DNA of 60,274 bases from a virus. The DNA lies in the IMG/VR virus record IMGVR_UViG_3300045988_172523, one strand, 5' to 3'. A model generated the notes under the pieces. The model saw nothing but the letters and a program-made list of their open reading frames with translations, had not been told where the DNA came from and ran no database searches. The position numbers and the translations under genes are program-made. Positions 40,085-60,121 of the stretch are shown piece by piece (positions within the stretch are counted from its first letter, which is position 1; every line of letters starts with the position of its first letter).

Positions 40085-40096
40085 AGGAGACAGACC

Positions 40097-42076: not shown

Positions 42077-42088
42077 AAAGCAAGCATC

Positions 42089-43441: not shown

Positions 43442-44790
43442 TGAACGACCTCTACCAAAACAAAGGGGAAGAGGTACAGACTTCGTTCAGTTTCAGCAGC
43501 GACGTGTTGGCCAAGGCACTGCAGCGCATCTACAGTCAGAAAATGGACGTGGAGGGCGAAATCGAGCCGAATCTATTTCACGAAATCTGCCGCATACTGG
43601 ACGATGCTGCTGCCGATGGGGTTGCACAGTCTGAGGTGAAGCAAGTGGACGATTTCCTGCAGCAGCTGCAAACCAACAATGAGGTCTTTGCGGCATTCAA
43701 GGTTCACCGCATGCAGCGCGATATGGCGCGGTTATTATTCGATTCGAACGGCACTCTAAAGCCATTCGAGAAATGGGTGCAGGAGGTCACACCCATCGCA
43801 TCTCACCAGGTGCGGCACTGGCTGCAGACTGAATATGACACGGCGGTGCTGAGGGCACATCAGGCAGCCGACTGGCAGCAGTTCCTCCGCGAACGCGATG
43901 TCTTGCCCAACCTCAAATGGATGCCTTCCACCTCCCTGCACCCGAGTGCTGATCATCGGCCGTATTGGAATACCATACGGCCCATCGACGACCCGTTCTG
44001 GAGCATACACCGGCCGGGCGACCGATGGAACTGCAAGTGCGACCTCACGGCCACCGACGAGGAACCGACGCAACTGCCGGATGAGGACGATAATAGTAAA
44101 CCGCAACCGGGGCTGGATAACAACCCGGGAACGGATGGCATCCTCTTTTCCGATTCCCATCCTTATTTCCCGAACGACTGCAGGCACTGTGCTTTCTATA
44201 AACCGGGCTTCAAGGACCAGCTGAAACACATCTTCAGTAATCGGGCAAAGGATTGCTACGACTGCCCATACATCAAGGCATGTATGGAACGGATGGCACA
44301 AAACGGGTTTAAACTTGAAAAATCATTCTCCAACGGCGGTGTACTTTATGTACATCCGAAGGTTGATAAGGATAAGGCCGACTACAAGGATATGAAACGT
44401 ATCTGCCTCCAATTGGCAAGAATGGGGCATCAAGTCAAAATGACACCACGCTTGCACTATCTGTCGGATGATTACCAACGTATCTACGCAAACTTGATAG
44501 ATACCAGATATTACAGAAAATGCCCGGATTTTGAAGTGGATGGCTTGTTTTACGAATTTGAAGGCTTCATCAAGCCATGGAACAAAAGAAAAGTAAAAAG
44601 CATGATTTCTCACGGGCTGGAGCAATCTTCCAGAATTGTAATCAAGAACACAAAAGGCTGTTCTGACCGTTTTATAAGAAGGGCTATCATGGCAAGACGG
44701 AATTTGCCTAATCAAAACATCGATGAAGTATGGATTTATGAAAAAGGGGAAATCAGGTTGTTCTATAAGGATGGTAAGTTCTACTACTAA
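43441..44790 (+). CDS. MuF-like minor head protein with AT-rich C-terminal cargo domain
   Basis: MuF core (AFKVHRMQRDMARLL...WLQTEYDTAVLRAHQAADWQQF...RWNCKC), followed by a linker and a ~165-aa extra domain. Confidence 0.75.
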   Translation: MNDLYQNKGEEVQTSFSFSSDVLAKALQRIYSQKMDVEGEIEPNLFHEICRILDDAAADGVAQSEVKQVDDFLQQLQTNNEVFAAFKVHRMQRDMARLLFDSNGTLKPFEKWVQEVTPIASHQVRHWLQTEYDTAVLRAHQAADWQQFLRERDVLPNLKWMPSTSLHPSADHRPYWNTIRPIDDPFWSIHRPGDRWNCKCDLTATDEEPTQLPDEDDNSKPQPGLDNNPGTDGILFSDSHPYFPNDCRHCAFYKPGFKDQLKHIFSNRAKDCYDCPYIKACMERMAQNGFKLEKSFSNGGVLYVHPKVDKDKADYKDMKRICLQLARMGHQVKMTPRLHYLSDDYQRIYANLIDTRYYRKCPDFEVDGLFYEFEGFIKPWNKRKVKSMISHGLEQSSRIVIKNTKGCSDRFIRRAIMARRNLPNQNIDEVWIYEKGEIRLFYKDGKFYY

Positions 44791-44868
44791 AAAGACAACA
44801 GGGAAGCCTGCGAACAGACTTCCCTGCGATGCGACGTGCCGCAGCACACGCTAACTCCTTATGGAGCT

Positions 44869-44884
44869 GCTGCAAATATAGTGA
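44869..44884 (-). promoter_or_regulatory. 16-nt element GCTGCAAATATAGTGA identical to the early-promoter element at 53935..53950 (minus-strand TATATTTGCAGC -7 box)
   Basis: Exact 16-nt repeat. Contains TAnnTTTG on the minus strand. Confidence 0.4.
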
Positions 44885-44906
44885 TTTATTTTAAAACGGT
44901 ATCACA

Positions 44907-45530
44907 ATGGACTTGAAAGATTTTGATAACTTGATAAAATCCAAGCGTAAACGGCTGGAAACGCTCATGCGACGCAAACTCCCCGTTACAGTCGGACGTA
45001 TGGCCAAAGACCATTTTCAGGAGAATTTCCGCCAGGGTGGATTTGTCAATGGCGGTCTTCACCCTTGGCCAAAATCCAAACGGCTGTCTTCGGGGGGTAC
45101 CGATGCCGCCAGCAATTATGGTACGCTGCTCTCCGGCAGGAAGCATCTTTTCAAATCGGTCGGATATACACCTGCAGACTACCGGGTAAGGGTGTTCAAC
45201 GAGGTGGTCTATGCACCCGTCCACAACTGGGGCGGCGAAATCGATGTCACCGTCACAGACCGCATGAGGCGCTTTGCATGGGCCAAGTTCTACAAGGCTT
45301 CGGGGAAAAGACAAAAAACCGGCACAGGGCAAAAGAAACGCGTTAAACGATGCACCAAACCGAAGGAACTGAATCCGCAGGCGCAGTTCTGGAGGAACAT
45401 GGCGCTTACCAAGAAAAAGAAACTGCACATCCGCATCCCGCAGCGCCAGTTCATGGGCGAAAGCGAAGAATTGAACAGCCGCATAAGGGAGAAGGTGGAT
45501 CAGGAAATTACCAACATTTTAAACAGTTAA
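44907..45530 (+). CDS. Virion morphogenesis / head-completion protein (Mu G-like / HK97 gp10-like)
   Basis: HFQENFRQGGF...PWPK...VYAPVHNWGG pattern. Synteny after MuF. Confidence 0.55.
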   Translation: MDLKDFDNLIKSKRKRLETLMRRKLPVTVGRMAKDHFQENFRQGGFVNGGLHPWPKSKRLSSGGTDAASNYGTLLSGRKHLFKSVGYTPADYRVRVFNEVVYAPVHNWGGEIDVTVTDRMRRFAWAKFYKASGKRQKTGTGQKKRVKRCTKPKELNPQAQFWRNMALTKKKKLHIRIPQRQFMGESEELNSRIREKVDQEITNILNS

Positions 45531-45534
45531 GGAT

Positions 45535-45984
45535 ATGGACGAAATTTTTATCGCAATCATGGAACAGATTGCACAGGAAATGCCGGAACTCTCGCTCATC
45601 GACGAGGACTACGGACAATTGGAAATGGGGGCAGAAGAAGACCAGTACCCGGTCACCTTCCCTTGTGTATTGATTGGAAATACCAGTTCCGACTGGCACG
45701 ACCTCGGATATGGGGCACAGAAAAGCGAATCGATGGTCACAGTACGTCTGGCTGTTGATTGTTACGACGATACGCACTATGCCTCGGGCACGTATGACAA
45801 GGTGAGAGAACGGATGCAACTGGCCGGAAAACTTTACAAGTCGCTGCAGTGTCTGCAATGCACGGACAACGCTTCGCCGCTGGTGCGCGAGAAAAGCCGT
45901 TCGTATGCCATGCCGGGGGGCATCAAGGTGTTCGAGCTGGTCTTTTCGTTCACACTGCACGATGAGACGGCTATGCCGGTATAG
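45535..45984 (+). CDS. Hypothetical head/tail-joining protein
   Basis: ORF starting 5 nt after the previous stop. No motif recognised. Confidence 0.45.
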   Translation: MDEIFIAIMEQIAQEMPELSLIDEDYGQLEMGAEEDQYPVTFPCVLIGNTSSDWHDLGYGAQKSESMVTVRLAVDCYDDTHYASGTYDKVRERMQLAGKLYKSLQCLQCTDNASPLVREKSRSYAMPGGIKVFELVFSFTLHDETAMPV

Positions 45985-45990
45985 GAGGAG

Positions 45991-46260
45991 TCACTGGGCA
46001 GGAAAAAGTTCCAGTTGGGCAGCGGTCAGACGAGGAGCCTTGACCTTGGGTATGGGACGGATGGGGCGGTCGCTTCCTTCCCGCGTCTTCCGGCGGATGA
46101 TGGTCATGATACGCTCCTCGGATATAAAGAATTCACGCTCCGACAACACTTTCAAAGCATCGTCGAACCGCAGCCGCTGCACTTCGGTCCAATAGTAGTA
46201 ACGACGGCACAGTGCCTCGTCACGCAGCTTGATCAGTTCTTTATCCCGTCCTTTACCCAT
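45991..46260 (-). CDS. Small DNA-binding regulator, candidate middle/late activator (Mor/C-like by position)
   Basis: Has its own TATTTTTG promoter after the early-operon terminator. Sigma-region-4-like pattern (RDEALCRRYYYW...VLSEREFFISEERIMTII). Confidence 0.4.
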   Translation of the reverse strand: MGKGRDKELIKLRDEALCRRYYYWTEVQRLRFDDALKVLSEREFFISEERIMTIIRRKTREGSDRPIRPIPKVKAPRLTAAQLELFPAQ

Positions 46261-46277
46261 ATACTTGTTTTCTCTTA

Positions 46278-46285
46278 CAAAAATA
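46278..46285 (-). promoter_or_regulatory. -7 promoter box (TATTTTTG on minus strand)
   Basis: Match to TAnnTTTG about 18 nt upstream of the ATG at 46260. Confidence 0.45.
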
Positions 46286-46310
46286 GCTGATTTTCATCGA
46301 ATTTAAGAAC

Positions 46311-46341
46311 AAAAGCGCCGCAATTATAACAACTGCGGCGC
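46311..46341 (-). terminator. Rho-independent terminator ending the early operon (GCGCCGCA ... TGCGGCGC, T run on minus strand)
   Basis: 8-bp GC-rich arms at 46315-46322 and 46334-46341, with AAAA at 46311-46314 on the plus strand. Confidence 0.7.
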
Positions 46342-46370
46342 TTTCTGTTTACAGGGTTAACGGTTTCCGG

Positions 46371-47057
46371 TTACAAACGGCAGAAACTGGGTTCAATGCG
46401 GGTCCATACACCGTTTTCAGGGTTACGGCGGCTGAAGTAGTAGTTGGTGGCATTGCGCTGCACCACGTTGGCTTCCTTGAACAGGCGCATGATGTCTGCG
46501 TACTCTTCATCGAACTTGTCTTCCAGTTCGTAGAGCTTCGAAATGCTCTTGTAGTCCAGATCGCCCATCTTGTTGCGCTCCAGCAGGGTCATGGCCATCT
46601 GATACATCGGATCATCCGAACCTTTCTCACTGTTCTGCATGTAGCGCTTCAGGTAGTCAATCAGACGGTCGGCTGCCATGTCGGCTCGTTCATCGAAGCC
46701 TTTCACCTTGTTGCTTTTCACCTCCAGCCGGAAGTCTCCGTCCGTAATGGTGTAGCTGCGCTGTTCGTCGCTTTTCACCTGGCCGTATTCCTTCATCACC
46801 TTGGTAAAGGCATCGGCTTCTTTTTCCAGCCATCCGCGGAACCCGGTCACGGCATTCACCATCTCAAGGACGTTGGTCTTTACTTCGTGCATAAACTCAC
46901 CGCGTAATGCCTCGTAAGTTTCACGACGGGCGATGCGGTCTTCTTTCTCTTCTTGCTGCAGCTGGGCCATCAGGGCTGCTCGCTGTTCTTTACTCAGGGA
47001 CTTGACGTCCACACTTTGATTGTTCTTTTCCATGTTTAAATCATTTTGAATGTTCAT
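46371..47057 (-). CDS. DUF3164-like Mu-family early protein
   Basis: By-eye similarity to the family (GFDERADMAADRLIDYL..., NYYFSRRNPENGVWTRIEPSF). Early-region position. Confidence 0.45.
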   Translation of the reverse strand: MNIQNDLNMEKNNQSVDVKSLSKEQRAALMAQLQQEEKEDRIARRETYEALRGEFMHEVKTNVLEMVNAVTGFRGWLEKEADAFTKVMKEYGQVKSDEQRSYTITDGDFRLEVKSNKVKGFDERADMAADRLIDYLKRYMQNSEKGSDDPMYQMAMTLLERNKMGDLDYKSISKLYELEDKFDEEYADIMRLFKEANVVQRNATNYYFSRRNPENGVWTRIEPSFCRL

Positions 47058-47071
47058 TACTTGTTTTTATT

Positions 47072-47248
47072 CCTACTCGTTATCCTGCGATTCTGGTTCA
47101 TCGTCTATCAGCATGGCCTCCCCGTTGGCATACGCCCAGTCAGCCAGCTCGTTGAAAAACTCCGCTGCATCCTGGTTCTCCAGATCGGATGTCGTAAGAG
47201 TCACGTCTTTTCTTATGCGCTCAAGCGCTTCATGTGCTTTTTTATCCA
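47072..47248 (-). CDS. Small acidic hypothetical protein (58 aa, below ORF-track cutoff)
   Basis: Hand translation gives MDKKAHEALERIRKDVTLTTSDLENQDAAEFFNELADWAYANGEAMLIDDEPESQDNE. It fills an otherwise empty gap in the operon. Confidence 0.4.
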
Positions 47249-47255
47249 TATTGTT

Positions 47256-47690
47256 CTATTTATCGGTTAAACCTCCTTTTCGTTGGATAGCCCGCAGTTT
47301 GATGGCCAGTTGTTCCAGCTCCGCTGTACTAATCTGAACAAAGGGTTTGCCGGCTATCCGAGGGTTGTTGCAGAATTCGTTCACCCGGTTCCAGTCAGTG
47401 GTGTCTATACCCAACTGTTGCATCAGCTTCAGACATACGCTGCGTTTCCGTCGCAGTTCCTCGCGAAGTTTCTGCCGCCATTCATCCTGCCCGGTCAGTT
47501 TCTCCAAGGCACAGCAGCAGGCTTCATATTCCTTGGAAGTCATTTCACGGAGGCTTTCCGTACGGTCCCACGTGTACTGCAGAACGATTTGCTTCTTTAG
47601 CCCTTCCCGGTCTCCTGTACAGGGCAGCTTGTTGAACAATGCGTAGAACCGGGCGAAATTGGTTACTTCCTGTGCCATGTCATTTACCAT
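47256..47690 (-). CDS. GemA/gp16-like (DUF1018-like) early regulatory protein
   Basis: Size, position and pattern (SLREMTSKEYEACCCALEKL...LGIDTTDW). Confidence 0.4.
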   Translation of the reverse strand: MVNDMAQEVTNFARFYALFNKLPCTGDREGLKKQIVLQYTWDRTESLREMTSKEYEACCCALEKLTGQDEWRQKLREELRRKRSVCLKLMQQLGIDTTDWNRVNEFCNNPRIAGKPFVQISTAELEQLAIKLRAIQRKGGLTDK

Positions 47691-47952
47691 TAAGAATCAT
47701 TTCACATTCCGTTGATTTGGTACTGACACGATAAATTATCTTATCCGGCTTCACTGATTTACCTTTGTATTCAGCCTCAATTTGCTTAGCAAATATCTTT
47801 TTGAACTCATCACCCATTTTAGAAAGTATTTCTTTATTGTACTCCCCGCAAAAACCTATGCGTGAAGATTGGATTTCACGAATTGTTCCTCTATATACCG
47901 TAGCGGTCAACTTCATCACCACAACACCGGTTTCCATTTTTATTTTTCCCAT
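47680..47952 (-). CDS. Hypothetical early protein
   Basis: ORF within the operon, in an AT-richer patch. Confidence 0.4.
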   Translation of the reverse strand: MGKIKMETGVVVMKLTATVYRGTIREIQSSRIGFCGEYNKEILSKMGDEFKKIFAKQIEAEYKGKSVKPDKIIYRVSTKSTECEMILNGK

Positions 47953-47963
47953 ATCGTCTAATT

Positions 47964-48437
47964 TTATTCAAACAACACTTTAATGCCACACGAACTGGCC
48001 ACGTCAAGTTCCAGTTTGGCTCCCTTGCTCAGTTCCCAGTCCTTCAGCATATAGATATAGTCACAAGCCAGCAACTGGGCAATGTCGGCCCGCATGTGGG
48101 CTCTCCAATGAGCTTCATCCGGCAATCCGTTCCTGAAAGGGTTTACAGGATCATAGCCTTGTGCCATCAGTTTCTCCTCGGCACGGCTGAAGGCTTCCTT
48201 GCGCTCATTCATATCATAGTGCGCGATGGCTCCGCTGATGTACACTTTCCCGGCACCGGTCACTTCACCACGTTGAAAAGCCTTGTGTCGTTCCCACCGT
48301 TCTGGAACCACCACACTGTAGTTGCACGATTGGCAGCAGCAGCCTTCTTCTTTCACCGGGAACGGATTGTATCCGTAGCCCTCATACTCTTTGCCGCAGA
48401 TGCAGCACACTTTCTTTTCTTCTTTCTTTTCCATCAC
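47964..48437 (-). CDS. Zn-ribbon plus DUF4406-like (nucleoside deoxyribosyltransferase-like fold) protein
   Basis: CCICGKEY...CCCQSC cysteine pairs, then KVYISGAIAHYDMNERKEAFSRAEEKL. Confidence 0.45.
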   Translation of the reverse strand: MMEKKEEKKVCCICGKEYEGYGYNPFPVKEEGCCCQSCNYSVVVPERWERHKAFQRGEVTGAGKVYISGAIAHYDMNERKEAFSRAEEKLMAQGYDPVNPFRNGLPDEAHWRAHMRADIAQLLACDYIYMLKDWELSKGAKLELDVASSCGIKVLFE

Positions 48438-48655
48438 TTCAAATCTTTAATGTTTATTTGGCAGGACGGATGCCATACCTGGATATTCCGGGCAAACATC
48501 ACATCCCTGGTTTCTATCACTACGTGTCCCTTTGTCTTGGCCCTGCGCAGACGGAGGTCGCTTTGTATGTTACGCTCTACCCAATCGTCCACCACGGCCT
48601 CCGCCTCCTGTCCTTTCAGGAGTATCTGGTACAGCTTATTCTCCCATTCCATCAT
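48434..48655 (-). CDS. Hypothetical early protein
   Basis: Coupled ORF that overlaps at both ends. Confidence 0.4.
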   Translation of the reverse strand: MMEWENKLYQILLKGQEAEAVVDDWVERNIQSDLRLRRAKTKGHVVIETRDVMFARNIQVWHPSCQINIKDLK

Positions 48656-49298
48656 TCAAATAATCCTCCATATTATCGTCCTTCAATGTTTTGGCAGCAC
48701 CTTCTTCCCATATCACGTAGGGTTCACCGGGCTTTTCCATAAAGCGGCTTTTGCACCAGGCTTTGAAACAGCTTACCATGATTTTCACATCGGCATCATA
48801 TTCCACCTTGCGGGCGCTTCTACCTGCCGGATGAAGTCCCTCGGCATGGCTGATGAAGATAAACAGTTTCTTGGGATGACGTTCCTTGAACTCCTTGTAG
48901 GTCTTGTAGTTCAAGCCGCTGTATTGGAAGCTGTCGATAATCACGATGCCGGGACTGCCCCGGCGCTGCAGACGTTCCTCCAGCTGGTCCATCGACTCGC
49001 GGTCAAGGATAACCAACCGCTTGCGCACTTCGTCCATCTTATGCCGTTTCAGGCTCATCTGGAACGAAAGGCCAGTGCTTTCTTCCAGGCTGTCATAGAT
49101 GACACGTCCGAAGCCGCACAGGTACTTGGCCAGCTGCATCACAAAGCTGCTCTTTCCGTTCCCGCTGGCACCCCAGATAATCCAAACGCCGCTCTTGGCA
49201 GGGTTGCCAATCGAGGCTTGCCAAGCCCCGGTAAATTCATACCGGGGTATCTTCATATTCAGCACCTCACCGGGGCTGTAGGCTCTTTTCAGTTTCAT
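48636..49298 (-). CDS. P-loop NTPase (RecA/KaiC-like small ATPase)
   Basis: Walker A GASGNGKSS and Walker B IVIIDSFQ. Confidence 0.6.
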   Translation of the reverse strand: MKLKRAYSPGEVLNMKIPRYEFTGAWQASIGNPAKSGVWIIWGASGNGKSSFVMQLAKYLCGFGRVIYDSLEESTGLSFQMSLKRHKMDEVRKRLVILDRESMDQLEERLQRRGSPGIVIIDSFQYSGLNYKTYKEFKERHPKKLFIFISHAEGLHPAGRSARKVEYDADVKIMVSCFKAWCKSRFMEKPGEPYVIWEEGAAKTLKDDNMEDYLNDGMGE

Positions 49299-50176
49299 GC
49301 TTGCATCCTCCTTAATTTTTCGATTTCGGTATATACGCGCCGCAAGCCGCCTCCGGTGCTGTGAACAATCTTGGCAATGTCGGCACCGTCCGGGGCATTG
49401 ATTTTGGCCACGATGGCAGCCTGTGCCTTCAGGAATTTTTCTCGTTCCTGTGCATCATCCGGGGTCACCTTGCTGTAGGAGTCACCGTAGCGACTCAACA
49501 TTTCGGTATAACCCACCTTCTTGCCTTCGATGGCGCGGTTGATCTTTTCCTTCAGCCCGTCTGCACCCATCATATACCACGCACAGCAGCGCTCGGTGGC
49601 GTTCCACAGGGCCTTCAGTTCAAGGAAGGCTTCATACTGCAGGTCCCCGGCTTCATCCAGAATAACCAGGGGCGTATCTATCGTGCGGAGGTAAGCCACC
49701 AGATCCTCATACACGTCGCTGTAGCGTCCGTTGCTGGTCACGCCGAATTCCTTGGCAATGTAGCGTATCAGCTTCAACTTGGTCTTCACTTGGCTGCAGT
49801 CCACATATACGGCGTGCTTGTGCTGCTTCACGTAAGCTTTGGCCGTAAAAGTCTTGCCGATATTGGGCATATCGCACAGGATGGCGCTCAGCCCGCTTCC
49901 CTGGCACACTTCCAGCTGCTTGCTCACAAACACATAGGTCGGGGTCTGTGCTGCCTGCCAGGGCATTTCCGTACGCAGTTGCACGCCCAGTCTTCGGGCT
50001 ATGCCTACCCAGTTGGCATCACTGACCTGCTTTTCATAATTGCCCCGCTTGATGGTATTGTACACACTGGGGGCTATGCCCAGTGCCGTAGCATGACGGT
50101 TGTCACTGGGATAATTTTCACGGTCGGCGGCTATCGCTGCCACAATACGTTGCTTTACTTCATTTGTTATTTCCAT
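49295..50176 (-). CDS. MuB-like AAA+ transposition ATPase
   Basis: N-terminal HTH-like region, Walker A MPNIGKT and Walker B LVILDEAGD. Lies directly downstream of the transposase. Confidence 0.75.
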   Translation of the reverse strand: MEITNEVKQRIVAAIAADRENYPSDNRHATALGIAPSVYNTIKRGNYEKQVSDANWVGIARRLGVQLRTEMPWQAAQTPTYVFVSKQLEVCQGSGLSAILCDMPNIGKTFTAKAYVKQHKHAVYVDCSQVKTKLKLIRYIAKEFGVTSNGRYSDVYEDLVAYLRTIDTPLVILDEAGDLQYEAFLELKALWNATERCCAWYMMGADGLKEKINRAIEGKKVGYTEMLSRYGDSYSKVTPDDAQEREKFLKAQAAIVAKINAPDGADIAKIVHSTGGGLRRVYTEIEKLRRMQA

Positions 50177-50212
50177 TTGAATGCTGTTTTAAATTCGTTC
50201 TAACGTCGTTAA

Positions 50213-52321
50213 TTATATCTTGGCTACTGCATCATGCTCGAAGGCACTGATGTCCATATAGGCTGAGTAATCTTCTTCCTCGGCTTGTGCAGGAAGGGGA
50301 ACGGCTTCCGCCTGTACCTCTGTTATCAGCTTTGCTTCCTCTTTGGCAAGGATACCCACACGCTTGATCTTTCCGTCCTTCATCATCTTGTCGAACTTGG
50401 CTACATACTTGGCCTGTTCGGTATAGGCTGCCTTGTCGTACTCGGTCTGCTCGGCGGTGGCTTCATTGTAACGTTTCACCTTCTGGCAGGTGTCTATTAA
50501 CCGGCCATGCTGATATACATAAATTTCCTGCACATTACCGTCTGCGCCTGCCAGCCAATAGGCATCCACTTGGTAGTTGCGCGGTTCCAACCGGTCTATT
50601 ACGTTCGGGTCGGACAGACGATATACTTCATGGTTTACCGTCAAATAGGCATTCTGCCGGATGGACGTTTCGGTATGCTCACCGATATACCGGTACAACA
50701 CCGCTTTATCCCAAGGACGAAGATCCGGGTTCTGTGTTCCACAAAGCACATCCCAACGCGTCATGCCAGGATATTTCTTTTGATTGGGGTGCGGCTGGTT
50801 GTTCCATTCTTTGATGGAAGCAATATCATCAGCCACAAGCTGCTCGTAAGTATAGGTAGGCACCCGATAGGTGTTGTTCAGTTCGTCATATACCTTTTCC
50901 ACTTTCGGACGGTTGGCTTCCAGTTTGGCCCACCAGCGGCCGATATTCTGCTGAGTCCGTTTTTCCACGCTGTACTTCTTGCCGCGGTTCACGTGCTCCT
51001 GGCGTTTCTCACGGCTGTTGCCGGGGTTGCACCAGTGTATGAGGGGAAAAACCACACCGGCTTGCATCAGGCCGTCTGTGAATTTGTTCACCAGATGGTG
51101 TTCCACCTCTATCTGTGCCGGCATATACCAGCCGTTCTGGTCGATGGTCTGAAACATGTTCCTCATACAATCCAGAAACAGGTCCTTGTTCTTGTTCCGG
51201 TTGTAGGCGTATCCTACAACGGCACCGCTTGCCACGTCGCTTACATAATAGGCATGCACATAGTTCCCATCGCGCATAGGTCGCGGAAGGTCTCGGTCGT
51301 CAGCGGAAATCTTGCTGAATGCATATTGCGGCAGGCTGCGCAGATGGTAGGGGCGCTGGGAGTTGTTGAAGTTCCATTGGGTCTGATGAACTTTGGCCAG
51401 CAAGGCAATGGTCTTGGGCTGTTTCAATATGTTGGCTATCGTAGCTTTGCTCAAAACCACCGGATTCCCGCTTTTGTCAGTGAAGTCTTCAGGGTTGAAG
51501 ATTTCACCCGTTTCCGGATCGTAGGCTTCGCAGTTCCCTGTCACAAACTGGTTATACATTTCTGCCACTACGGTATCATAAGGGTGCTCCGCTTGGGCGG
51601 CAAGACCACGGACCAGGTCTTCAATCTTATAAGTCACCTTCCTTCGGTTCTGGTTCATGAACTTGCGGCTGATAAGGCTTTCATAGCCGTTGGACTTGAA
51701 GTCATTCACACGCTTCTTGAAGCGGTTGGAACTCACGGGCAGGGTATGCCCGAACTCTGCCTGATAGTAGCTGATGGCTCCTGCCAGCTCGCCCCAGTTC
51801 ACCGGACCGGCCTTCATGGCCTTGCGCATAAAGGTGGCATCGTCCATCGCACGAAGCACGGCTTCAATGACCGAAGCGTTCACCGTATATTCCTGGATGT
51901 GTTCCGGCGGCAGGGTGTCGCCGTTGTCAAAGCGGAACCGGGTGTAGAATTCCCGGGCTTTCGCATCGATGTGGTAATGACCGATAAACCAGTTTCTCAA
52001 AATATCTTCTTTCATTTCTCCGTATTTTAATTTTATCCGTTCCTGAAATCGCAGGGGCATGGTGGCAATCTCTATCAGTGCATAACTTCCAAGCCCCTTG
52101 CCTTGTCGCACTACGTTGATTTCTTTCCTGGCCGCCAGCTTCTTGTAATTGGGTACCGACATGATGGGAGCAAGTTCTTCCATGGAAAGCATGGAGGGAT
52201 GATGTCCTCGCAGCGCACGGCTCTTGCTGTAGTCGGCCTTTCCGTCTTCCCGAATCACCGGGCGGTCATCGTAGGTCAAATCCTTGTATGATATGCACAA
52301 TATCTTTCCATAATACTCCAT
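50213..52321 (-). CDS. MuA-like DDE transposase (702 aa)
   Basis: The largest early gene. Candidate DDE residues lie in SADDRDL, YYVSDVASG and PGNSREKRQEH contexts. Paired with the MuB-like ATPase and the repeated end motifs. Confidence 0.75.
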   Translation of the reverse strand: MEYYGKILCISYKDLTYDDRPVIREDGKADYSKSRALRGHHPSMLSMEELAPIMSVPNYKKLAARKEINVVRQGKGLGSYALIEIATMPLRFQERIKLKYGEMKEDILRNWFIGHYHIDAKAREFYTRFRFDNGDTLPPEHIQEYTVNASVIEAVLRAMDDATFMRKAMKAGPVNWGELAGAISYYQAEFGHTLPVSSNRFKKRVNDFKSNGYESLISRKFMNQNRRKVTYKIEDLVRGLAAQAEHPYDTVVAEMYNQFVTGNCEAYDPETGEIFNPEDFTDKSGNPVVLSKATIANILKQPKTIALLAKVHQTQWNFNNSQRPYHLRSLPQYAFSKISADDRDLPRPMRDGNYVHAYYVSDVASGAVVGYAYNRNKNKDLFLDCMRNMFQTIDQNGWYMPAQIEVEHHLVNKFTDGLMQAGVVFPLIHWCNPGNSREKRQEHVNRGKKYSVEKRTQQNIGRWWAKLEANRPKVEKVYDELNNTYRVPTYTYEQLVADDIASIKEWNNQPHPNQKKYPGMTRWDVLCGTQNPDLRPWDKAVLYRYIGEHTETSIRQNAYLTVNHEVYRLSDPNVIDRLEPRNYQVDAYWLAGADGNVQEIYVYQHGRLIDTCQKVKRYNEATAEQTEYDKAAYTEQAKYVAKFDKMMKDGKIKRVGILAKEEAKLITEVQAEAVPLPAQAEEEDYSAYMDISAFEHDAVAKI

Positions 52322-52332
52322 TTCATTGCTGT

Positions 52333-52758
52333 TTATAAGGCAGCTGCCATCTGTTGGGTCTCGTGCTGCAGCTGCATGAAGTCTGATACAAACTCACATT
52401 GGTAGGTTTCGGTCCGTTTTCCGTCCACGTACACGTCCACATCGTTGGTCTTCCGGTGGACTACCAGCTTTACACGGGGACCGAAGGTGCAGGTCATGGT
52501 ATGCTCACACTCCTCGAAGGTGGTTTCGCAGTTCGGAATGAAGTTCCCGTCAGTCAGTTTGCCGCCTCGCTTCAGGGCAAGAGTGCGTATCCGGCGCGCC
52601 TGATCGCTGTCACGGACAAAATTCAGTGCTTGCCACACAGCCTGACGGCTGCATCCGAATGTCTTCATCAAGAAGGTCTTGGTCTCGTTATCTGTCAAAA
52701 TCTGCTTTCTCATATCGTCATACTTTTTAATCGTTATCGTTCGTTCAAAGGTTTTCAA
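52333..52758 (-). CDS. Ner-like/HTH early protein
   Basis: FLMKTFGCSRQAVWQALNF HTH-like segment. Lies immediately upstream of the transposase. Confidence 0.45.
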   Translation of the reverse strand: MKTFERTITIKKYDDMRKQILTDNETKTFLMKTFGCSRQAVWQALNFVRDSDQARRIRTLALKRGGKLTDGNFIPNCETTFEECEHTMTCTFGPRVKLVVHRKTNDVDVYVDGKRTETYQCEFVSDFMQLQHETQQMAAAL

Positions 52759-52774
52759 CGGCTTCCGCTATTTC

Positions 52775-53041
52775 CTAATCACCCGTCAGTATTTCATGAA
52801 GGCGTGTCCCTTTCTGCAGTTCTTCGACCAGCACCTGCATCGCTTCCTCACACACACAGCTCACATTCTCTATCACCCGGTAGGCATCCGAGTTGCTTAT
52901 CTCATCCTCCGTCATGAATTGTCCAACCAGCTCCATCGCCTGGTCGGCAATATTCTGCGTATGTGCCGTACTGCCTATCATCGTGCGCAACTTCTGTTTG
53001 AACAGACTCTCTGCTGTTCTCGGATTGAAATTCTTTGCCAT
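52775..53041 (-). CDS. Hypothetical early protein
   Basis: ORF in the early operon. Confidence 0.4.
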   Translation of the reverse strand: MAKNFNPRTAESLFKQKLRTMIGSTAHTQNIADQAMELVGQFMTEDEISNSDAYRVIENVSCVCEEAMQVLVEELQKGTRLHEILTGD

Positions 53042-53200
53042 AACTCTAAATTTTAAAAGTTTATATCGTGGGGCGCGGGGAATCGAACCCCGGCGGCTTT
53101 CTACGCTTTCTTATTTCGCTTTCTCATTTTCTATTTACCAACTTTCCGGCCGTGCCTGCCGCCCCTGCCCGTCTTTCCGGGCTGCCAGTTATCCGGCAAT

Positions 53201-53623
53201 CTATTTGCCTTGTTCTTCTATCATCGAAAGGACAACCTTCCTGTCTTCATCCCAAAGCGGAAGCCCCAATTCGATGGTTCGTTTCACCACTTCCACCTCA
53301 CCGGCCAGCCTTACCGCTTCTTTGCGGAAATCGGTATCGTCATACGCATGTGCCTTGCCAATCAGAAAGTCGGCAAGGTCGCTGTTACGTTGCCGCATGG
53401 ACTCCTTCAGGTTGGCGTTTGTGTCCTCCAACACCCCTAAGCGAATGCCGATTTCTTGGAGCGACCGCCGGATTCCTCCGCTCGTTGGGTCGTTCATCTC
53501 TTTAAACTCCTTGCAGAAGTCATCCTTATACATATCTGTGGCCATATAAAGCCGGTCTATAATGGCAAATGTTTCTGCATTTACCGCGCATTGGGTTCTT
53601 TCCTCAAATTCTTGCTGTGTCAT
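53201..53623 (-). CDS. Hypothetical early protein
   Basis: ORF in the early operon. Confidence 0.4.
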   Translation of the reverse strand: MTQQEFEERTQCAVNAETFAIIDRLYMATDMYKDDFCKEFKEMNDPTSGGIRRSLQEIGIRLGVLEDTNANLKESMRQRNSDLADFLIGKAHAYDDTDFRKEAVRLAGEVEVVKRTIELGLPLWDEDRKVVLSMIEEQGK

Positions 53624-53644
53624 AATCTCACTTATTTTATTGTA

Positions 53645-53860
53645 TTATTCTGCATCTTCAATTTTGAAAGAAAAGCACTTATCCGCCAATACTTTTTTTA
53701 CAAAGTCTAAGTCGTATCTATCAGCCGAAAAGAAAACTGCCTGATAATCTACACTGGGATAAGCCTTGATTGCTGTTGTATCCACCATCTTCTTGACCAG
53801 CCCGTAAAGAGTTTCGGCGGTCTCAGCTGTTGCTTGAGCTATAATTACTTTTGCTTTCAT
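53645..53860 (-). CDS. First early-operon protein (hypothetical)
   Basis: ORF divergent from the repressor gene. Confidence 0.4.
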   Translation of the reverse strand: MKAKVIIAQATAETAETLYGLVKKMVDTTAIKAYPSVDYQAVFFSADRYDLDFVKKVLADKCFSFKIEDAE

Positions 53861-53902
53861 TTACTTTAATCCTTAAAATTCGCTAATCACACGCCTTTTT
53901 TG

Positions 53903-53950
53903 TATATTTGGCGCGCTGTTTACATCTTAAACACGCTGCAAATATAGTGA
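53903..53950. promoter_or_regulatory. Repressor/early switch region: plus-strand TATATTTG (53903..53910) and minus-strand TATATTTG (53939..53946) boxes
   Basis: Two oppositely oriented TAnnTTTG matches lie in the 152-nt gap between divergent genes. Confidence 0.5.
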
Positions 53951-54012
53951 CTTCTCACGAATAAACAAATAAAATATCGAGAAATGTCACGACTAATTTA
54001 AATTATTAAGCT

Positions 54013-54780
54013 ATGAAGTCAACAATTCACGATAGAATAAGTGAGATAGTAGAACATTTTGGCAACGGAAAGAATACTGTAATCGCTTCGAAATTAGGCG
54101 TAAGCGAAGGTAATATACGAGGATATGTAAAGAATGTCATGCCAAAGCATGATTTTTTGGAGAAAATAGTGAGATGTTTCGATGTAGATTCAACTTGGCT
54201 TCTTACAGGTATTGGAACTATGCTTAAAGAGGATTCTAACAGCATTCAAACAACAAAAGAATCAACCCCTTCTGAGCTACCTGCTACTTCTGATGACGCA
54301 TCTGCCGACACACCTGGCACCGCCCATGCACCCGAAGCCGTCGCTGTTTCAATTTCCCAAAAAGAAAAGCAGACCATGAAGCCAATCCCGTTGGTCACGG
54401 AAACCGCAGCAGCTGGTTTTGGCAACTGTGACTTTGCCATCGCAGAACAGGATGTCAAGGATTACTATGTCATCCCGAAATTCCGCTACAGCCGAGTCGA
54501 TTTCATGATCGAAATATCCGGACTATCCATGCACCCTCATTTCAATCCCGGAGACATCATAGCCTGCACCATCCTCACCGATCGAAAGTTCCTTCAGTGG
54601 AACAAGTGCCACGTCATTGCCACTCGCGAGCAAGGCATTCTTGTCAAACGTCTTATGCCAAGCAAGCAGAAAAACTGCCTCACTGCCATATCCGACAACA
54701 AGGACTACCCTCCATTCGATATTCCGCTGGATGAAATCACAGGCATCGCACTTGTGGTCGGATCTGTCAGCCTCGAATAA
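54013..54780 (+). CDS. Phage repressor, HTH plus S24 (LexA/CI-like) autopeptidase domain
   Basis: N-terminal HTH (VIASKLGVSEGNIRGYV). C-terminal GLSMHPHFNPGD (Ser) and ILVKRL (Lys). Confidence 0.8.
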   Translation: MKSTIHDRISEIVEHFGNGKNTVIASKLGVSEGNIRGYVKNVMPKHDFLEKIVRCFDVDSTWLLTGIGTMLKEDSNSIQTTKESTPSELPATSDDASADTPGTAHAPEAVAVSISQKEKQTMKPIPLVTETAAAGFGNCDFAIAEQDVKDYYVIPKFRYSRVDFMIEISGLSMHPHFNPGDIIACTILTDRKFLQWNKCHVIATREQGILVKRLMPSKQKNCLTAISDNKDYPPFDIPLDEITGIALVVGSVSLE

Positions 54781-55025
54781 GCCTTCCACACTCAGGCATC
54801 AACACATAGGCGCATTTCACACGATACACGCAGCCGCCTCCCAAACACGGCGCACGCACACTCTTTGGAAGGCTATTTCAGGATACCAGAGCGTAAAATC
54901 GCTGAAAATCAAAGGTTTCATGCTTATATATATAATGTATGCCAACAAATAAATGTCGTTTTTCCTATCTGAAAACAGCAAAAAACGGCACTTATTTACA
55001 TTGGCAACCCTTTTTCCTATTTCGG

Positions 55026-55119
55026 GTGTACCCTCTAAAAACCGAAAAAGTAACCCTAAAAGTAACCCTAAACTCATTAAAGTAGTAACCCTAAACAGTA
55101 ACCGTAATAGTAACCCTAA
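55026..55119 (+). repeat. Array of five phased GTAACC(C/G)TAA direct repeats plus one degenerate copy
   Basis: Copies at 55050, 55062, 55085, 55098 and 55110, spaced 12, 23, 13 and 12 nt. A degenerate GTACCCTCTAA sits at 55028. Confidence 0.75.
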
Positions 55120-55230
55120 ACTCAAAATTACCACCCGTAAGGGCATAAAAAAAGGGGAGCCGTAAGCTCCCCAATCAGCATTCAAAGAAATAACGCCTAC
55201 AAGCCTTTCTAACGGCGTTATTATGTCGTT

Positions 55231-55464
55231 CTAACCATTGCCCTTACTACCGCCAGAAATGAGCGTAGATTGCTTAATTATAGCCTTTTTCGTGCATATT
55301 GTGCCGTTACCAGACAGCCCGGCATGAAGCAGGTAATTCTTGGTTGCCCCCACCTGATCTGCCGTCAGAACCGTATAAACAGCCGATATACTGCTGAAAT
55401 ACCAATCTTTCTGCTTCGTCCCGTCTATTTTATGCAGCAAATGCACATGAATCACTTTTGCCAT
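55231..55464 (-). CDS. Small hypothetical protein (77 aa from MAKVIHVHLL)
   Basis: Start chosen downstream of the TATATTTGCAGC promoter box at 55480..55491. Confidence 0.45.
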   Translation of the reverse strand: MAKVIHVHLLHKIDGTKQKDWYFSSISAVYTVLTADQVGATKNYLLHAGLSGNGTICTKKAIIKQSTLISGGSKGNG

Positions 55465-55479
55465 ATTCGTTTCTATTAT

Positions 55480-55491
55480 GCTGCAAATATA
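55480..55491 (-). promoter_or_regulatory. -7 promoter box TATATTTGCAGC (minus strand)
   Basis: The same 12-mer as at 53935..53946 and 44869..44880. Lies about 20 nt upstream of the ATG at 55464. Confidence 0.45.
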
Positions 55492-55734
55492 CCAAATAAT
55501 GTCTATTTGGAAGAATTTCAAGGCACTATATTTTAAAATAGGCACAAAAAACGGCCACACAGCCGTTCACACCATCATATAACAAAATCCATCAACCCAG
55601 CCACAAAACGGCCACACAGCCGAAAATAAAACCCTTCCAGGCCGTTTTAGCCCCATCTGCAAGCCCCATGTAAAGCAATCGCCCAAAATTCCGAGGAAAA
55701 GCCCCCATTTTGTAAAAGGCATGTAAAAATCATG

Positions 55735-55858
55735 TAAAAGAAAACCGCTTCGAAATATTCAGCCCATTTTCCCGAACATGCCTAAATCATTTGGCTTTCA
55801 AAGCCTTTCACCCATTTTTCCCGACCATTGAAAAAACCGCTTCGTTCTATGCCCCATA
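55735..55858. repeat. Prophage end (early-gene side) with inverted CGAAGCGG motifs (55745..55752, 55836..55845) and CCCATTTT(T)CCCGA x2
   Basis: Reverse complements match the ACGAAGCG core at the other end. Confidence 0.6.
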
Positions 55859-58800
55859 GAGGATTATGATGATAATATAACTATGGAACATTATGTCCTC
55901 CATGAGCCATCAAAGACCAGCAATGTGTTCTTGTTTTCAGAAAAAATTGTAATAACAAACGATGGTAAAAGTACATAACACCTAATAAATGTTGGTTATT
56001 ACTATGATTCTGAAAAGAAAAAGTTGATAACTAATATTACTCAGAATATTTATTGTTTTTTCCCAACAAAGGAGTCATTTAAAACATGCTTTGTTTCACA
56101 TGCTCCATTTCTTCTAACAGATAATCGACAGAATCTAAAACCAAATGAAAACATAAATGAAGAACTTATCAACCTTTTGGCAGAATTAGCTGCAAAGGCT
56201 GTAGTGCATCTTCGTGATTATGGTGTAAAACACAAGAAATTGCTTATAGATGAAAATATTACGGAGATTATTCCTAACTATGTGCGGCATTATTGGCAAT
56301 CTCTTGATGAAAGATTCGAGGAACCAATTGTTAATGCGTTCAAGAAACTACTTGAAACAGAAAGAATCCTGTTGTCAAGAAATGGAAAGTATCTATCTAT
56401 GAGGGAAGCATATAAAGGTTCACCAAGAGAACTCGTAGAATTATTATCTCAAAAACAGTTGGTAATGCTCACAAATAAAGCCTATAAGCATGATTACTAT
56501 AATAATAAAGAAGATAAAATGCTGAATCCTAAGGATGTTGATTTTTTGAAATGGGAGTTGGCACAGAATATCATTAAACAGGATAACAATATATACAACA
56601 AACTTGGAGAATATACTTCAGAGAGCTTTGCCAGGGATATTACTCTTGACTTTATGAAAGCACAGGATTTGAAATGGGTCACAAGGATGTACACATTTCT
56701 TAGAACTGCAGCACCAAAATTGTGGAAGTTGACGGATAAAGATAGTAATAAATTAGCATCGTCTCTTCCTTTCAGAGAGGCTCCCATCATCAAAACACAA
56801 AAAGGCGAATGGGTAAAGCCTTTTGTTGATGTGACTTCACCAAATATTTATCTGCCTTTAAAGGATGACAATAAATCCGATTATAATTTTGTTGCTAATG
56901 AGTATCTACAGAACGAAATGGCTAAAAAGTTCTTTATGGAACTTGATTTGAAGGAACCAGATGAGTATGACTATATACGTCAGGTAATTCTTGGAAAGTT
57001 TGAGAGTGATGAAATAGATATTGAGAATGACGAGTTGTCTTCTGACTTTATGGTTATTTTACGTTATTACCAAAAGGTTAAAGAAAAGTATCAAGGTCAG
57101 AAACTTATACAAGAGGTTAAAGAGAAAATTTTGTTAGTTGATAAGGATGGCATATTATGTAGGTCGCATGAATTGTATTTTCACAGTCATAATCTTGAAC
57201 TTTATCTCTCTGGGGTTAACGACATCCACTATATTGATTTAGATATTTATAAGGATGCTACTAAAGAGTTTGGAATAGAAACTGTAAGAATGTTTTTATT
57301 AATGCTTGGAGTAAAATTGTATCCGAAAATAGAAAGTTTTATGCGCTGGGATAAATCTTATCTTAGTGAAAGATTGAAAAGTCAAATTTTAATAACAAAC
57401 ATATATGATTATCGTTTTGAAGACTATGCTTTGCAAGGATTTAACGAATTCAAAAAACATAAAATACATAAAGAAACATCTCATTATCTATGGAATGTAG
57501 TATTACCAGCTTTGAAATTTGGTAATTACGAACATATGGCCATGATATATCGTAGGAAGTATGCCCGTTCCTATGATACAGTTTATTATGATTCAACATT
57601 CAAGGATTCCCTTCAATACAGCAAGTGGATTCTTGATAAAAATGGCAATGTCCTGTCTTCTAATGAAATTGCTCTTGAAGACCTTGATTCTGAGTATGAC
57701 CGTAATAATGGCTTAATTCAATTTCTTGGTATAGAGAAACGTGAAAAAAGCATTTTAGAATTAGGTGGCACTGAGGAACAACAGGAACAATTGGATTTGG
57801 GGAAACGCGTCAAGCAACTTGCTGGAGATGACTTGACTGAAGAAGAAATAATTCAAGCCTTATCTTATGCCAAAGCTCAGAAAAAAGCTAAAAAACATAT
57901 TTATGAAGAAACTGAAAATCCTACCATCAGTGATAATGGTTCAGATGAAAAAGATTACTCTGACATTGATAGAAAACCACGAGAACGAAAAAACAGTCAT
58001 AATTCAACTAATTTAGGCGATGAAAGTAATGATTCTTCTGACATAAAGAAATATAATGAAGATGATGATTTTGATTTGGATACACCGTTCAATCGTGAGG
58101 AACTCAGGAAGACCGAACTTTCAGATATGTTTATCAACAATAATCATAAACCTCCTGTAAAGAAAGAAAAGGAGGTTACTGATGAAGTACAGGCAGATGA
58201 ATTAAAACAAAAACTGCTTGAGCAGGAGGAAAAGCATAACAAAATAATTGAACTTCGAGAGGCAGCTTCAAATGCAGAAAGGTATTCAAAAGAGTGGTTC
58301 GATGCATTGATAGAATTGGAGTATCGTGGCGGCACAGAAGAAACAAAGGGAGACTTCGGTAAATCCATCAATATCACGTTTAACTCAGTGAACAAAGAGC
58401 AAGGATCTGAGCGTATCTATGTACTCAGAAATCCTTCTCGTAGTATTCCTCTATGGCTTGAAGAAATTGGAGATATTGAGATTAAATTTACCTTCTCAGA
58501 TCGTGATGAATTGAAACTAAAATTTGAAGTTGCAAATGTACGTGAAAATAGTTTACGTCTAAAAGCAAGCAAGGCCTTTGAAGATGTCTTGAACAAAATT
58601 GCTTGGAATAAGTGTACTAAGGCATCGATAACTTTGAAAAATCAGATAGACCTTATGGGTAAACTACGCAGTGCATTTAACGGTCTAGGTTTGGAGGATG
58701 GATTTAATCTTAAAGAAAACCTTGATGATAACCTGAAGTTTATATTTGGTCCTCCAGAAACTGGTAAAACAACAACTCTTGCCAAGAAGATTATTGGAAT

Positions 58801-60121
58801 GATGAATGAATATTCGACATGTAGGATACTTGTTCTAGCACCAACTAATACAGCTTGTGACGAACTTGCAAAAAAGATAAAGGAGTGTAGTAAGGATGAC
58901 TGTGCATGGTTGTACCGTTTTGTATCAACAGCAGATGAATCGTTGGAAGATATTGTTGTTGACCGTGAATCAATGGTATACGAAGATGAGCAATGCTGTG
59001 TCATTTCAACAATGGCACGTCTGCCTTTTGACGGTTTTAATGGCGAGGGTGGTTACAATAAGTTACTAGATATTGTATGGGACATGATTTTATGCGACGA
59101 AGCCTCAATGATTCCTTTAGCAGAAATGGCACTGGCTATTTATAATTTTGTCAATACTCCTATTCTTATAGCTGGTGATCCTTTGCAAATAAAGCCAATA
59201 CTTCATGAAGAAGAATGGAAGGATGAAAATATTTACACAATGGTGAATCTTGACAGGGTTGAGAACCCTGTGACTGAACCAATTCAATTTGCGATTGAAA
59301 ACCTTAGTATGCAGTACCGCAGTTTACCAGCTATTGGCGAATTGTTTAGTCAATATGCATACGATGGTAAATTGCGACACTATCGTTCGGCGATGGAAAA
59401 TCATATGAAGTTTGGTAAGCTTAATCTTAAACCTATAAACTTTATACCATTCAAAGTGGAAAGATATGATAGTGTATTTGGTATAAAGAAACTAGATGGT
59501 TCCAATGTACACATTTATTCTGTACTGTTTACGTTAGAGATATTTAAATATATCGTTCGTGAGTATGCCAAAAATCATGAAGAAGAGTACTCGATTGGTA
59601 TTGTTTGTCCTTATTCTCCACAGGCGCAGCTTATTGAGAGTCTTATTATGCAGACTCCCAATATACCAGTTAATGTTAAAATTACAGTTGGTACAGTGCA
59701 TAGATTTCAAGGAGGTCAATGTAACTTCATGTTTGTGGTACTTAATCCTCCAGCAGGGATGAAAGTTGCAGCTGATAGAATATTCCTGAACAACAAAAAT
59801 ATTCTTAATGTGGCTATAAGTCGTGCTCAGGATTTCTTATGCATACTACTCCCTCACTGTGATACTGACGGGTATGAGAATCTTTATGAAATAAATAAAA
59901 TCGGTAGAATTGCAATGAAGGATTCTGCAAATGTAGCACATTATACCTGTGACCAGATAGAGGAAATCATATTGGGGCGTAAGTTCTTCATTGAGAATAA
60001 TACATTTGTTACCTCACATCAGCTTACTAATGTTTATACAAAGGCAGTAAAGCGTTATGAGGTTAGAATAGATGAAAATTCAGTTGATATTCAGTTGGGG
60101 GATAATAATAAAATAACGTGA
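55859..60121 (+). pseudogene. 3-prime part of the GHKL ATPase / Upf1-like SF1 helicase gene; in-frame TAA at 55976..55978; longest intact ORF 56024..60121
   Basis: Same frame as the 13167 fragment when joined at GAGG. Sacsin-like IYCFFPT...HAPFLLTDNRQNL. Helicase motifs GPPETGKT, LCDEASMI, IAGDPLQIKP, MQYRSLPAI, VGTVHRFQGGQ and LNVAISRAQ. Confidence 0.8.

Follow-up and report, generated by a model that had tools for sequence, protein, structure and literature searches.

Tiamat is listed as a single-gene defence system with a nuclease of the PD-(D/E)XK type (10.1101/2024.10.26.620412), and the domain DUF3883 is described in the literature as a restriction-endonuclease-fold domain. In Mokosh, an Upf1-like helicase is combined with a PLD nuclease, and the ATP site of the helicase is required for defence (10.1101/2022.05.11.491447); the name Tiamat does not occur in the text of that preprint. 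Comparative genomics has established a pattern in which GHKL+S5 ATPases are embedded in restriction-modification (R-M) operons together with helicases and nucleases (PMC2292703). Here, we report on a gene in the IMG/VR virus record IMGVR_UViG_3300045988_172523, a stretch of 60,274 nucleotides referred to below as the window. The intact form of this gene encodes a protein of 1,643 residues, in which a sacsin-like GHKL ATPase is joined by way of a long middle region and an acidic linker to an Upf1-like superfamily 1 (SF1) helicase. Based on sequence comparison, we regard this protein as a Tiamat-type variant with a helicase effector, in which a Tiamat-like module is combined with a helicase in the place of the nuclease. 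The copy in the window is split by a Mu-like prophage (Table 1).

A preliminary description of this DNA, made from the letters alone, had joined an open reading frame (ORF) starting at 13167 with the segment 55859..60121 to give a single gene. This reconstruction was correct, but an in-frame TAA codon and the prophage nature of the DNA in between had been missed. A protein search spanning 5.8 billion protein clusters recovered an intact 1,643-residue version from gut metagenomes (P0001, a 90% cluster with 2,032 members). Compared to P0001, the joined translation contains a duplicated Glu at the joint, a stop in the place of Glu, and three missense changes, and is otherwise identical. The corresponding DNA tells the same story: positions 986-1949 of a contig with an intact allele (L001) match window positions 12876-13839 with 100% identity, positions 1946-6255 match 55859-60168 with 99.88% identity, and the two matches share 4 bp (GAGG). 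The 21-kb contig L169 is collinear with window positions 3167-13839 and 55859-60260 with the identical 4-bp overlap, and contains HipB, HipA, a Wadjet-like cluster, and the intact gene, in other words the whole HipBA-Wadjet island. Since these empty-site alleles overlap both halves of the window by 4 bp, the segment 13840-55858 represents inserted DNA, flanked by a target duplication of 4 bp. The duplication at the junctions, the empty-site alleles, and the occurrence of the same phage end in 68 viral contigs also eliminate the possibility of an assembly chimera.

The left ORF (13167..13844, +) codes for 224 native residues and one phage-derived codon before it ends with a stop at 13842-13844, and the longest ORF free of stops in the right part covers 56024-60121 (+). 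Because it is split by the 42-kb prophage and also carries the nonsense codon, the copy in the window cannot work and is a pseudogene of a 1,643-residue single-polypeptide, two-motor protein. In annotation, both ORFs, as well as the 1,365-residue ORF labelled "AAA ATPase", should be treated as pieces of a single pseudogene that are separated by 42 kb of transposable prophage. The right half (4.3 kb) differs from the intact allele at five positions, four of which change the protein (one nonsense, three missense), and the left 964 bp are identical.

The three-part architecture of the preliminary description, comprising a sacsin-like GHKL module, a long middle region with an acidic stretch, and a complete Upf1-like SF1 helicase, agrees with profile hidden Markov models (HMMs) as well as with predicted structures. 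All motifs on which the description was based are present (ELLQNADDA, GVGFKAVFQYTD, IYCFFPT, HAPFLLTDNRQNL, GPPETGKT, DEAS, GDPLQIKP, QYRS, FQGGQ, and NVAISRA), and the HMMs to which it pointed (sacsin, AAA_11/AAA_12) match together with related families. Pfam SACS (PF25794) covers residues 37-134 (4.7e-18, 66.3 bits, cut-off 32.8), and NCBIfam P_loop_sacsin matches with 5.9e-22 (77.9, cut-off 50). At the other end of the protein, AAA_12 matches residues 1370-1554 (5.8e-22, 78.6 bits), and AAA_19 (34.3 bits) and AAA_11 (30.9 bits) match residues 1178-1336, all of them above their cut-offs. Among PDB sequences, the best relatives are Upf1/NAM7 (5.5e-12) and the sacsin repeat SR1 (6e-7).

For structural comparison, we used AlphaFold2 models built from 61-sequence alignments. 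The model of the C-terminal module (residues 1000-1643) reached a predicted local distance difference test (pLDDT) score of 85.8, and Foldseek aligned approximately all of its 644 residues with Upf1 (1.9e-27, about 660 columns), Sen1, IGHMBP2, Dna2, ZNFX1, and nsp13. Since the model superposes on Upf1-like proteins over nearly the full length, the similarity includes the stalk and barrel accessory domains. Helicase motifs I, II (DEAS, with D1303 and E1304), III (GDPLQ), IV (QYRS), V, and VI are all present. The model of the N-terminal module (residues 1-897, pLDDT 86.1) retrieved Hsp90/TRAP1, sacsin SR1, GyrB/ParE, and MutL.

Both ATP sites are conserved in alignments of 61-120 homologs. In the GHKL domain, E51, N55, D58, and the segment GKFGVGFK (115-122) are invariant. 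In the helicase, the homologs keep GPPGTGKTT, DEASM, GDPxQ, QxR, GTxHxFQG, and NVAxSRA, with little or no variation. The CFFPT and HAPFLL motifs and the 80-residue C-terminal tail are also kept across 120 homologs. The acidic low-complexity stretch, previously placed at about 57900..58200, is real and corresponds to residues ~881-1000 (about 57830-58189); it is the sole non-conserved, gap-rich segment of the family in these 120 homologs, among which residues 901-1000 show variation and gaps.

We also looked for a hidden nuclease or another effector. Searches of the whole protein against Pfam, NCBIfam, and PADLOC returned only the GHKL and helicase domains. For residues 385-880, a 17-sequence profile found no match in all PDB sequences (E ≤ 10), the 17 members compared with Pfam at E ≤ 1 yielded nothing beyond isolated matches of single members that we regard as noise, and no conserved D...(D/E)xK pattern is present.

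The preliminary description had recognised no named defence system in this architecture. This statement does not hold, as collinear homology links residues 1 to ~880 to Tiamat-type (TmtA) proteins, and the helicase is similar to the one in Mokosh. The PADLOC model TmtA PDLC03972 matches with 2.2e-48 and places residues 42-830 on profile positions 38-806 of 1302. Eight more PADLOC models of TmtA match as well, and three distant homologs behave alike. The last ~500 positions of the best TmtA profile are unmatched, and no TmtA profile covers the helicase. As a comparator, we chose a 1,006-residue protein with SACS and NOV_C (DUF3883) domains, which is encoded beside NERD and Qat on a Sulfuricurvum plasmid and matches TmtA with 2.5e-83. 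This protein is collinear with residues 38 to about 860 (BLASTP 2e-44), and a profile of residues 385-880 aligns to it with an hhalign probability of 98.8%. Beyond residue ~860, the comparator continues with NOV_C, and the family studied here with the linker, the helicase, and the tail. Pfam finds no NOV_C in our protein.

This relationship defines what is shared and what is exchanged. Both kinds of protein are single large polypeptides with a sacsin-type GHKL N-terminus and a conserved middle region of ~500 residues, and both occur in defence-island contexts. The Tiamat-type comparators end in the restriction-endonuclease-fold domain NOV_C/DUF3883 and are about 1,000-1,150 residues long, whereas the present family has a disordered linker, a 560-residue Upf1-like helicase, and an 80-residue tail, amounts to ~1,600 residues, and contains no detectable nuclease. 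When the middle region was used as a profile in an exhaustive search, 1,981 representative clusters were retrieved, 614 of them at E ≤ 1e-30. Among the best 150 of these, which we classified, 64 carry the helicase (median 1,597 residues), 36 carry NOV_C (median 1,045 residues), and 50 are fragments or unassigned. No cluster among these 150 combines the two modules: NOV_C, as detected by jackhmmer, occurs in the 36 short relatives and in 0 of the 64 helicase-type proteins. On contigs from one genome per species, 31 of the 82 proteins with the N-terminal module carry the helicase. The helicase type is thus common and spread over many phyla, with hosts that include Bacteroidota, Bacillota, Desulfovibrio, Thiotrichaceae, Planctomycetota, Actinomycetota, and others. 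At one Siphonobacter locus (L027), the N-terminal module (841 residues, 8034-10559) and the helicase module (722 residues, 10619-12787) are encoded by separate adjacent ORFs, either as a natural split or as the result of a frameshift.

The helicase core also resembles that of Mokosh. In PADLOC, it matches MkoA (7.4e-26 for the RecA2 half, and 2.1e-21) and MkoC (1.9e-16), with matches confined to the core. Both systems make use of an Upf1-like (COG1112) SF1 helicase, which in Mokosh is essential for defence, and type II Mokosh (MkoC) is also a single gene. Mokosh differs by the PLD nuclease that accompanies the helicase, within one protein in type II and encoded by the adjacent gene in type I, and, in type I (MkoA/MkoB), by an additional Ser/Thr kinase domain; the present protein has neither, and carries a GHKL ATPase on its N-terminal side. 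No PLD family was found among the Pfam, NCBIfam, and PADLOC matches, and next to the gene lie a ParA-like gene and the Wadjet cluster. In the absence of a PLD nuclease, we can exclude membership in Mokosh. We can also exclude Nhi, given that no Nhi-named model appears among the PADLOC matches at E ≤ 0.1 and that no nuclease domain was found.

The MORC/paraMORC proteins (Iyer, Abhiman, Aravind 2008) are similar in that they combine GHKL with a second transducer-like domain, associate with helicases, and occur in R-M or defence neighbourhoods. Their GHKL domain is of the MutL/MORC type, belongs to a GHKL+S5 module with a MORC-specific S5 motif, and works alongside separate superfamily II helicases and nucleases, whereas the domain studied here is, by profile, of the sacsin/Hsp90 type and is covalently fused to a superfamily I Upf1-like helicase. 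Among eukaryotic proteins, sacsin SR1 has nearly identical N-terminal motifs, ELLQNAxDA and K(I/V)G(K/R)FG(V/I)GF. NOV_C, which the Tiamat-type comparator contains, takes its name from plant NO VEIN (Pfam PF13020, "Protein NO VEIN, C-terminal"). The helicase model superposes on Upf1 along its entire length, stalk and barrel included, and ZNFX1, Sen1/SETX, and IGHMBP2 share this likeness; the protein lacks the CH and SQ domains of Upf1 as well as the DnaJ and HEPN domains of sacsin. A non-exhaustive search gave neither a solved structure nor a described eukaryotic protein with both modules joined.

Table 1. Features of the window; residue numbers (aa) refer to the intact protein.
Feature	Position	Strand	Remarks
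HipB	about 3713-4021	+	placed by mapping from L169
HipA	4030-5520	+	
398-aa ORF in JetA position	5566-6762	+	no Pfam match
MksE/JetB	6802-7353	+	
SMC-like 1220-aa protein	7337-10999	+	
JetD-like protein	11002-11895	+	
First gene part, codons 1-224	13167..13838	+	N-terminal helix and ATP-binding lobe of sacsin-type GHKL ATPase
GAGG duplication, left copy	13836..13839		right copy 55859-55862; empty-site alleles L001, L169
Mu-like transposable prophage, 42,019 bp	13840..55858		between codons 224 and 225; not a part of the defence island
Dam-type methyltransferase	14078-14938	-	
Reverse transcriptase	16550-17851	-	
Tape measure and tail genes	18594-34204	-	including tail-fibre proteins
Large terminase	40097-41629	+	
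Mu portal	42089-43441	+	
Mu F-like protein	43441-44790	+	
MuB-like transposition ATPase	49295-50176	-	AAA protein
Transposase	50213-52321	-	phrog_310, 1.2e-38
S24 repressor	54013-54780	+	
Rest of gene	55859..60121	+	duplicated codon 224, codons 225-1643, stop at 60119-60121
GHKL second half, aa 225-345	55862..56224	+	beta-rich transducer-like domain; invariant CFFPT, HAPFLL...R313...K317
In-frame TAA nonsense codon	55976-55978	+	codon 263; GAA (Glu) in intact alleles
Middle region, aa 346-880	56225..57829	+	mixed alpha/beta; conserved; outside the family, found only in Tiamat-type (TmtA) SACS+NOV_C proteins; no Pfam family
Acidic/basic low-complexity linker, aa 881-1000	57830..58189	+	variable; gapped in ~half of homologs
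Upf1-like SF1B helicase, aa 1001-1560	58190..59869	+	stalk helices, beta-barrel (1B-like), RecA1/RecA2
Walker A GPPETGKT, aa 1187-1194	58748-58771	+	Glu1190 where nearly all homologs have Gly
C-terminal tail, aa 1561-1643	59870..60118	+	conserved small alpha/beta domain; invariant N..VT.H...NVY...R...D

The prophage that disrupts the gene is complete-looking. In addition to the genes in Table 1, it encodes a Mu G-like protein, DUF3164, a ClpP-like protease, and a thymidylate-synthase-like gene, and inverted copies of a repeat containing ACGAAGCG are found at both of its ends. A match annotated as "DNA transposition protein" was also obtained. It is 90.6% identical to a phage contig from human faeces (MT836083.1). 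A conjugative transposon as the 42-kb insert can be eliminated on the grounds of the Mu portal, Mu F, transposase, MuB-like, terminase, and tail genes. Mu itself produces a target duplication of 5 bp, compared to 4 bp here. The first 34 nucleotides of the prophage (13840-13873) occur exactly in 68 IMG/VR contigs (L100-L167) next to 65 different flanking sequences, none of which is the flank found in the window. This diversity of flanks beside an identical phage end indicates near-random transposition by a common gut phage, and therefore, as far as the data show, the gene was struck by chance. Near the reverse transcriptase, we observed an imperfect pair of 132-nt repeats with 76% identity (18055-18186 and 18662-18793), one copy of which lies within the 3' end of a 2,185-residue tail-fibre-like gene. 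This layout is like that of a diversity-generating retroelement, but the mismatches are not adenine-specific in an ungapped alignment.

The allele in the window does contain the unusual Walker A motif GPPETGKT that the preliminary description had pointed out, but this is not a feature of the family. GPPGTGKT is found in 119 of 120 close homologs and in 61 of 64 helicase-type representatives, so GPPETGKT can be dismissed as a family signature. In the Phocaeicola vulgatus cluster (P0125-P0134, from metagenomes), G and E alleles coexist as full-length ORFs that are otherwise at least 90% identical, with Gly for example in P0125 and P0132, and Glu in P0127. Glu at this fourth position of the P-loop is restricted to the Phocaeicola lineage, of which GPPETGKT is a polymorphism. 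The same cluster also contains shortened products of 780 (P0121, NCBI MCS2411916.1), 473 (P0133), and 1,296 residues (P0124), and one shortened product is located on a 154-kb P. vulgatus contig. These P. vulgatus products suggest repeated independent inactivation, though some of them are perhaps artefacts of contig ends.

The preliminary description placed the gene in a defence-type neighbourhood, and the HipB-HipA pair and the Wadjet-like MksE/SMC/JetD cluster upstream are indeed there. In the window as well as in L169 and L170, the order is HipB-HipA, Wadjet-like cluster, ParA-like gene, and then the gene under study. The ParA-like gene (11931-12772, -) appears split into a P-loop ORF of 57 residues (12599-12772) and an ORF of 223 residues (11931-12602), and the longer ORF is likewise predicted on L001 and L169, the contigs with intact alleles.

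An allele with at least 90% identity (P0132, locus L168) resides in an unrelated island, in the company of SIR2_2, WYL, a RecD-like helicase, and HsdR. Homology between L168 and the window is limited to 12748-13839 and 55859-60117, corresponding to the gene and ~420 bp upstream, with 99.4-99.6% identity. This limit indicates that the gene travels from one defence island to another as a single-gene cassette of ~5.35 kb. The ORF on L168 ends with ...NNKITSEL (1,646 residues) and that in the window with ...NNKIT, a difference that places the 3' boundary of the cassette at the stop codon. The two ends of the window (1-165 and 60110-60274) are exact inverted copies of each other, and this repeat starts inside the last codons of the gene. 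It holds an ORF start, MFPESKVTEIYCMADDF (from 60224), which resembles an insertion-sequence (IS) transposase, and this stretch has diverged in L169 (93%). Two inverted IS copies probably form the ends of the contig.

Homologs in other genomes are often found beside R-M and other defence genes. Homologs lie 12-140 nt downstream of type I hsdMSR in the same orientation, and type III res or mod+res directly precedes the gene in three genomes or plasmids of Bacteroidota. Other neighbours are McrBC, SIR2_2, and RhuM, and one island contains T5orf172 and a UvrD-RNaseT fusion. UvrD helicases with an inserted RNase_T exonuclease domain were seen beside two distant homologs in unrelated genomes (L010, 11545-15063, -; L018, 13833-16412, +). 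In a Pfam census of 107 immediate neighbours from 31 genomes, SF1 helicases, ResIII, RE_endonuc, and AbiEii-like ATPases are commonest. No partner gene is conserved across the contexts examined, including those of the Bacteroidota branch. At six loci (L028, L029, L042, L051, L057, and L079), a RecD-like SF1 helicase of ~1,200-1,233 residues terminates no more than a few bases from where the gene begins. This immediate upstream position suggests a two-gene subtype. The loci with this helicase are mostly from Bacillota, and in L078 two genes for the N-terminal module flank such a helicase.

Taken as a family, these proteins probably constitute an anti-phage or anti-mobile-element system, judging from homology and gene context. 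The reading that we favour, with slightly more reserve, is that the gene encodes a Tiamat-type candidate of this kind with a helicase effector, present here as a pseudogene split by a prophage. Several points weigh against it. The association with defence genes is qualitative only; the census also returned many housekeeping neighbours (ValRS, TonB receptors, transporters, glycosyltransferases), and two close homologs stand alone in housekeeping surroundings. Even for Tiamat, the literature calls the mechanism unknown, and we found no paper on a sacsin-helicase fusion. The fold search with the N-terminal module is dominated by the GHKL domain and says nothing separate about residues 385-880. 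Whether the isolated SR1 domain of eukaryotic sacsin binds nucleotides is a matter of dispute, which leaves ATPase activity of the present GHKL module uncertain. Because no nuclease or toxic effector was found, how a helicase alone would provide immunity is conjecture. Finally, the Gly-to-Glu allele of the P-loop and the several shortened alleles in the same species may mean that the gene is dispensable or costly.

A different role would be that of an accessory motor, inert alone, which serves the adjoining R-M systems by looping or remodelling DNA as proposed for MORC/paraMORC. The co-oriented positions downstream of type I hsdMSR and of type III res or mod+res, the lack of a nuclease within the protein, and the known embedding of GHKL+S5 ATPases in R-M operons (PMC2292703) are all consistent with this possibility. 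On the other hand, the type of R-M system varies by locus (type I, type III, McrBC), and no R-M gene is near in the window, L005, L008, L013, or L168. The at least 90% identical genes in two unrelated islands moved as a 5.35-kb cassette without an R-M partner moving along, and nuclease-bearing Tiamat-type relatives are listed as a single-gene defence system (10.1101/2024.10.26.620412). We therefore consider the accessory role unlikely. We also considered that the protein has no role in immunity but is a quality-control or maintenance factor for the cell or the island, engaged in RNA surveillance or in replication or partition of an integrative element. Its eukaryotic relatives do act in quality control (Upf1 in RNA decay, sacsin/Hsp90 as chaperones), a ParA-like gene is directly upstream in the window and in L001, and some homologs have housekeeping neighbours only. 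This role is hard to reconcile with a patchy spread and variable presence within species: a scan of one genome per species gave no match with >55% identity, and the representative genome apparently lacks the gene. Recurrent shortened or inactivated alleles, repeated placement in defence islands, and homology of the N-terminal module to a named defence protein family make a maintenance function quite improbable.

A further possibility concerns the disrupted copy alone, which may still be useful if a promoter in the phage end or within the gene drives expression of the 1,365-residue ORF from TTG 56024. Such a product would consist of the helicase and the middle region without the ATP-binding lobe. 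This long ORF (56024-60121) does persist, and all helicase motifs are intact save for the Gly-to-Glu change in Walker A. However, the TTG start is a mechanical choice of the ORF lister, and residues 1-278 with all ATP-binding motifs of the GHKL domain are gone. That four of the five differences in the right half change the protein, next to an identical left 964 bp, fits relaxed constraint, with small numbers. A residual function of this kind appears very remote. The helicase-effector Tiamat-type protein is a good candidate for experiments with intact alleles of other strains.

As to how such a system may work, the GHKL and middle module could be an ATP-dependent sensor or clamp that dimerises on ATP, by analogy to MutL, MORC, and Hsp90 (PMC2292703), and that controls the C-terminal effector. 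In this family, the effector would be a 5'-to-3' translocase that loads on single-stranded DNA or RNA of the invader. This translocase might strip or unwind replication or transcription intermediates, or pass them to restriction nucleases encoded next door. That the family works without any nuclease, be it its own or that of a neighbour, seems doubtful. Even more tentatively, Tiamat may be one face of a larger modular family, in which a shared GHKL sensor/clamp (residues 1-880) is combined with interchangeable effectors. The helicase branch would then be a nuclease-free, two-motor immune protein that acts by ATP-driven remodelling only, as a counterpart of the eukaryotic antiviral ZNFX1, MOV10, and Upf1 joined to a sacsin/MORC-like clamp. 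It is also tempting to speculate that the Glu allele and the shortened copies in P. vulgatus record selection against a costly system, and that the gene had to be disabled, by the insertion itself or by an earlier mutation, for the Mu-like prophage to establish itself here.

Should the intact alleles protect their hosts, they would add a common single-gene system to the defences of gut Bacteroidota and many other phyla. If so, they would rank among the few examples of immunity based on a helicase without a recognisable nuclease, and they would tie the GHKL domains of sacsin and NO VEIN and the helicases Upf1 and ZNFX1 to a bacterial conflict system. Since the two branches share an 880-residue module and differ in their effector, their comparison would then separate sensing from execution and thereby provide a handle on the mechanism of Tiamat.

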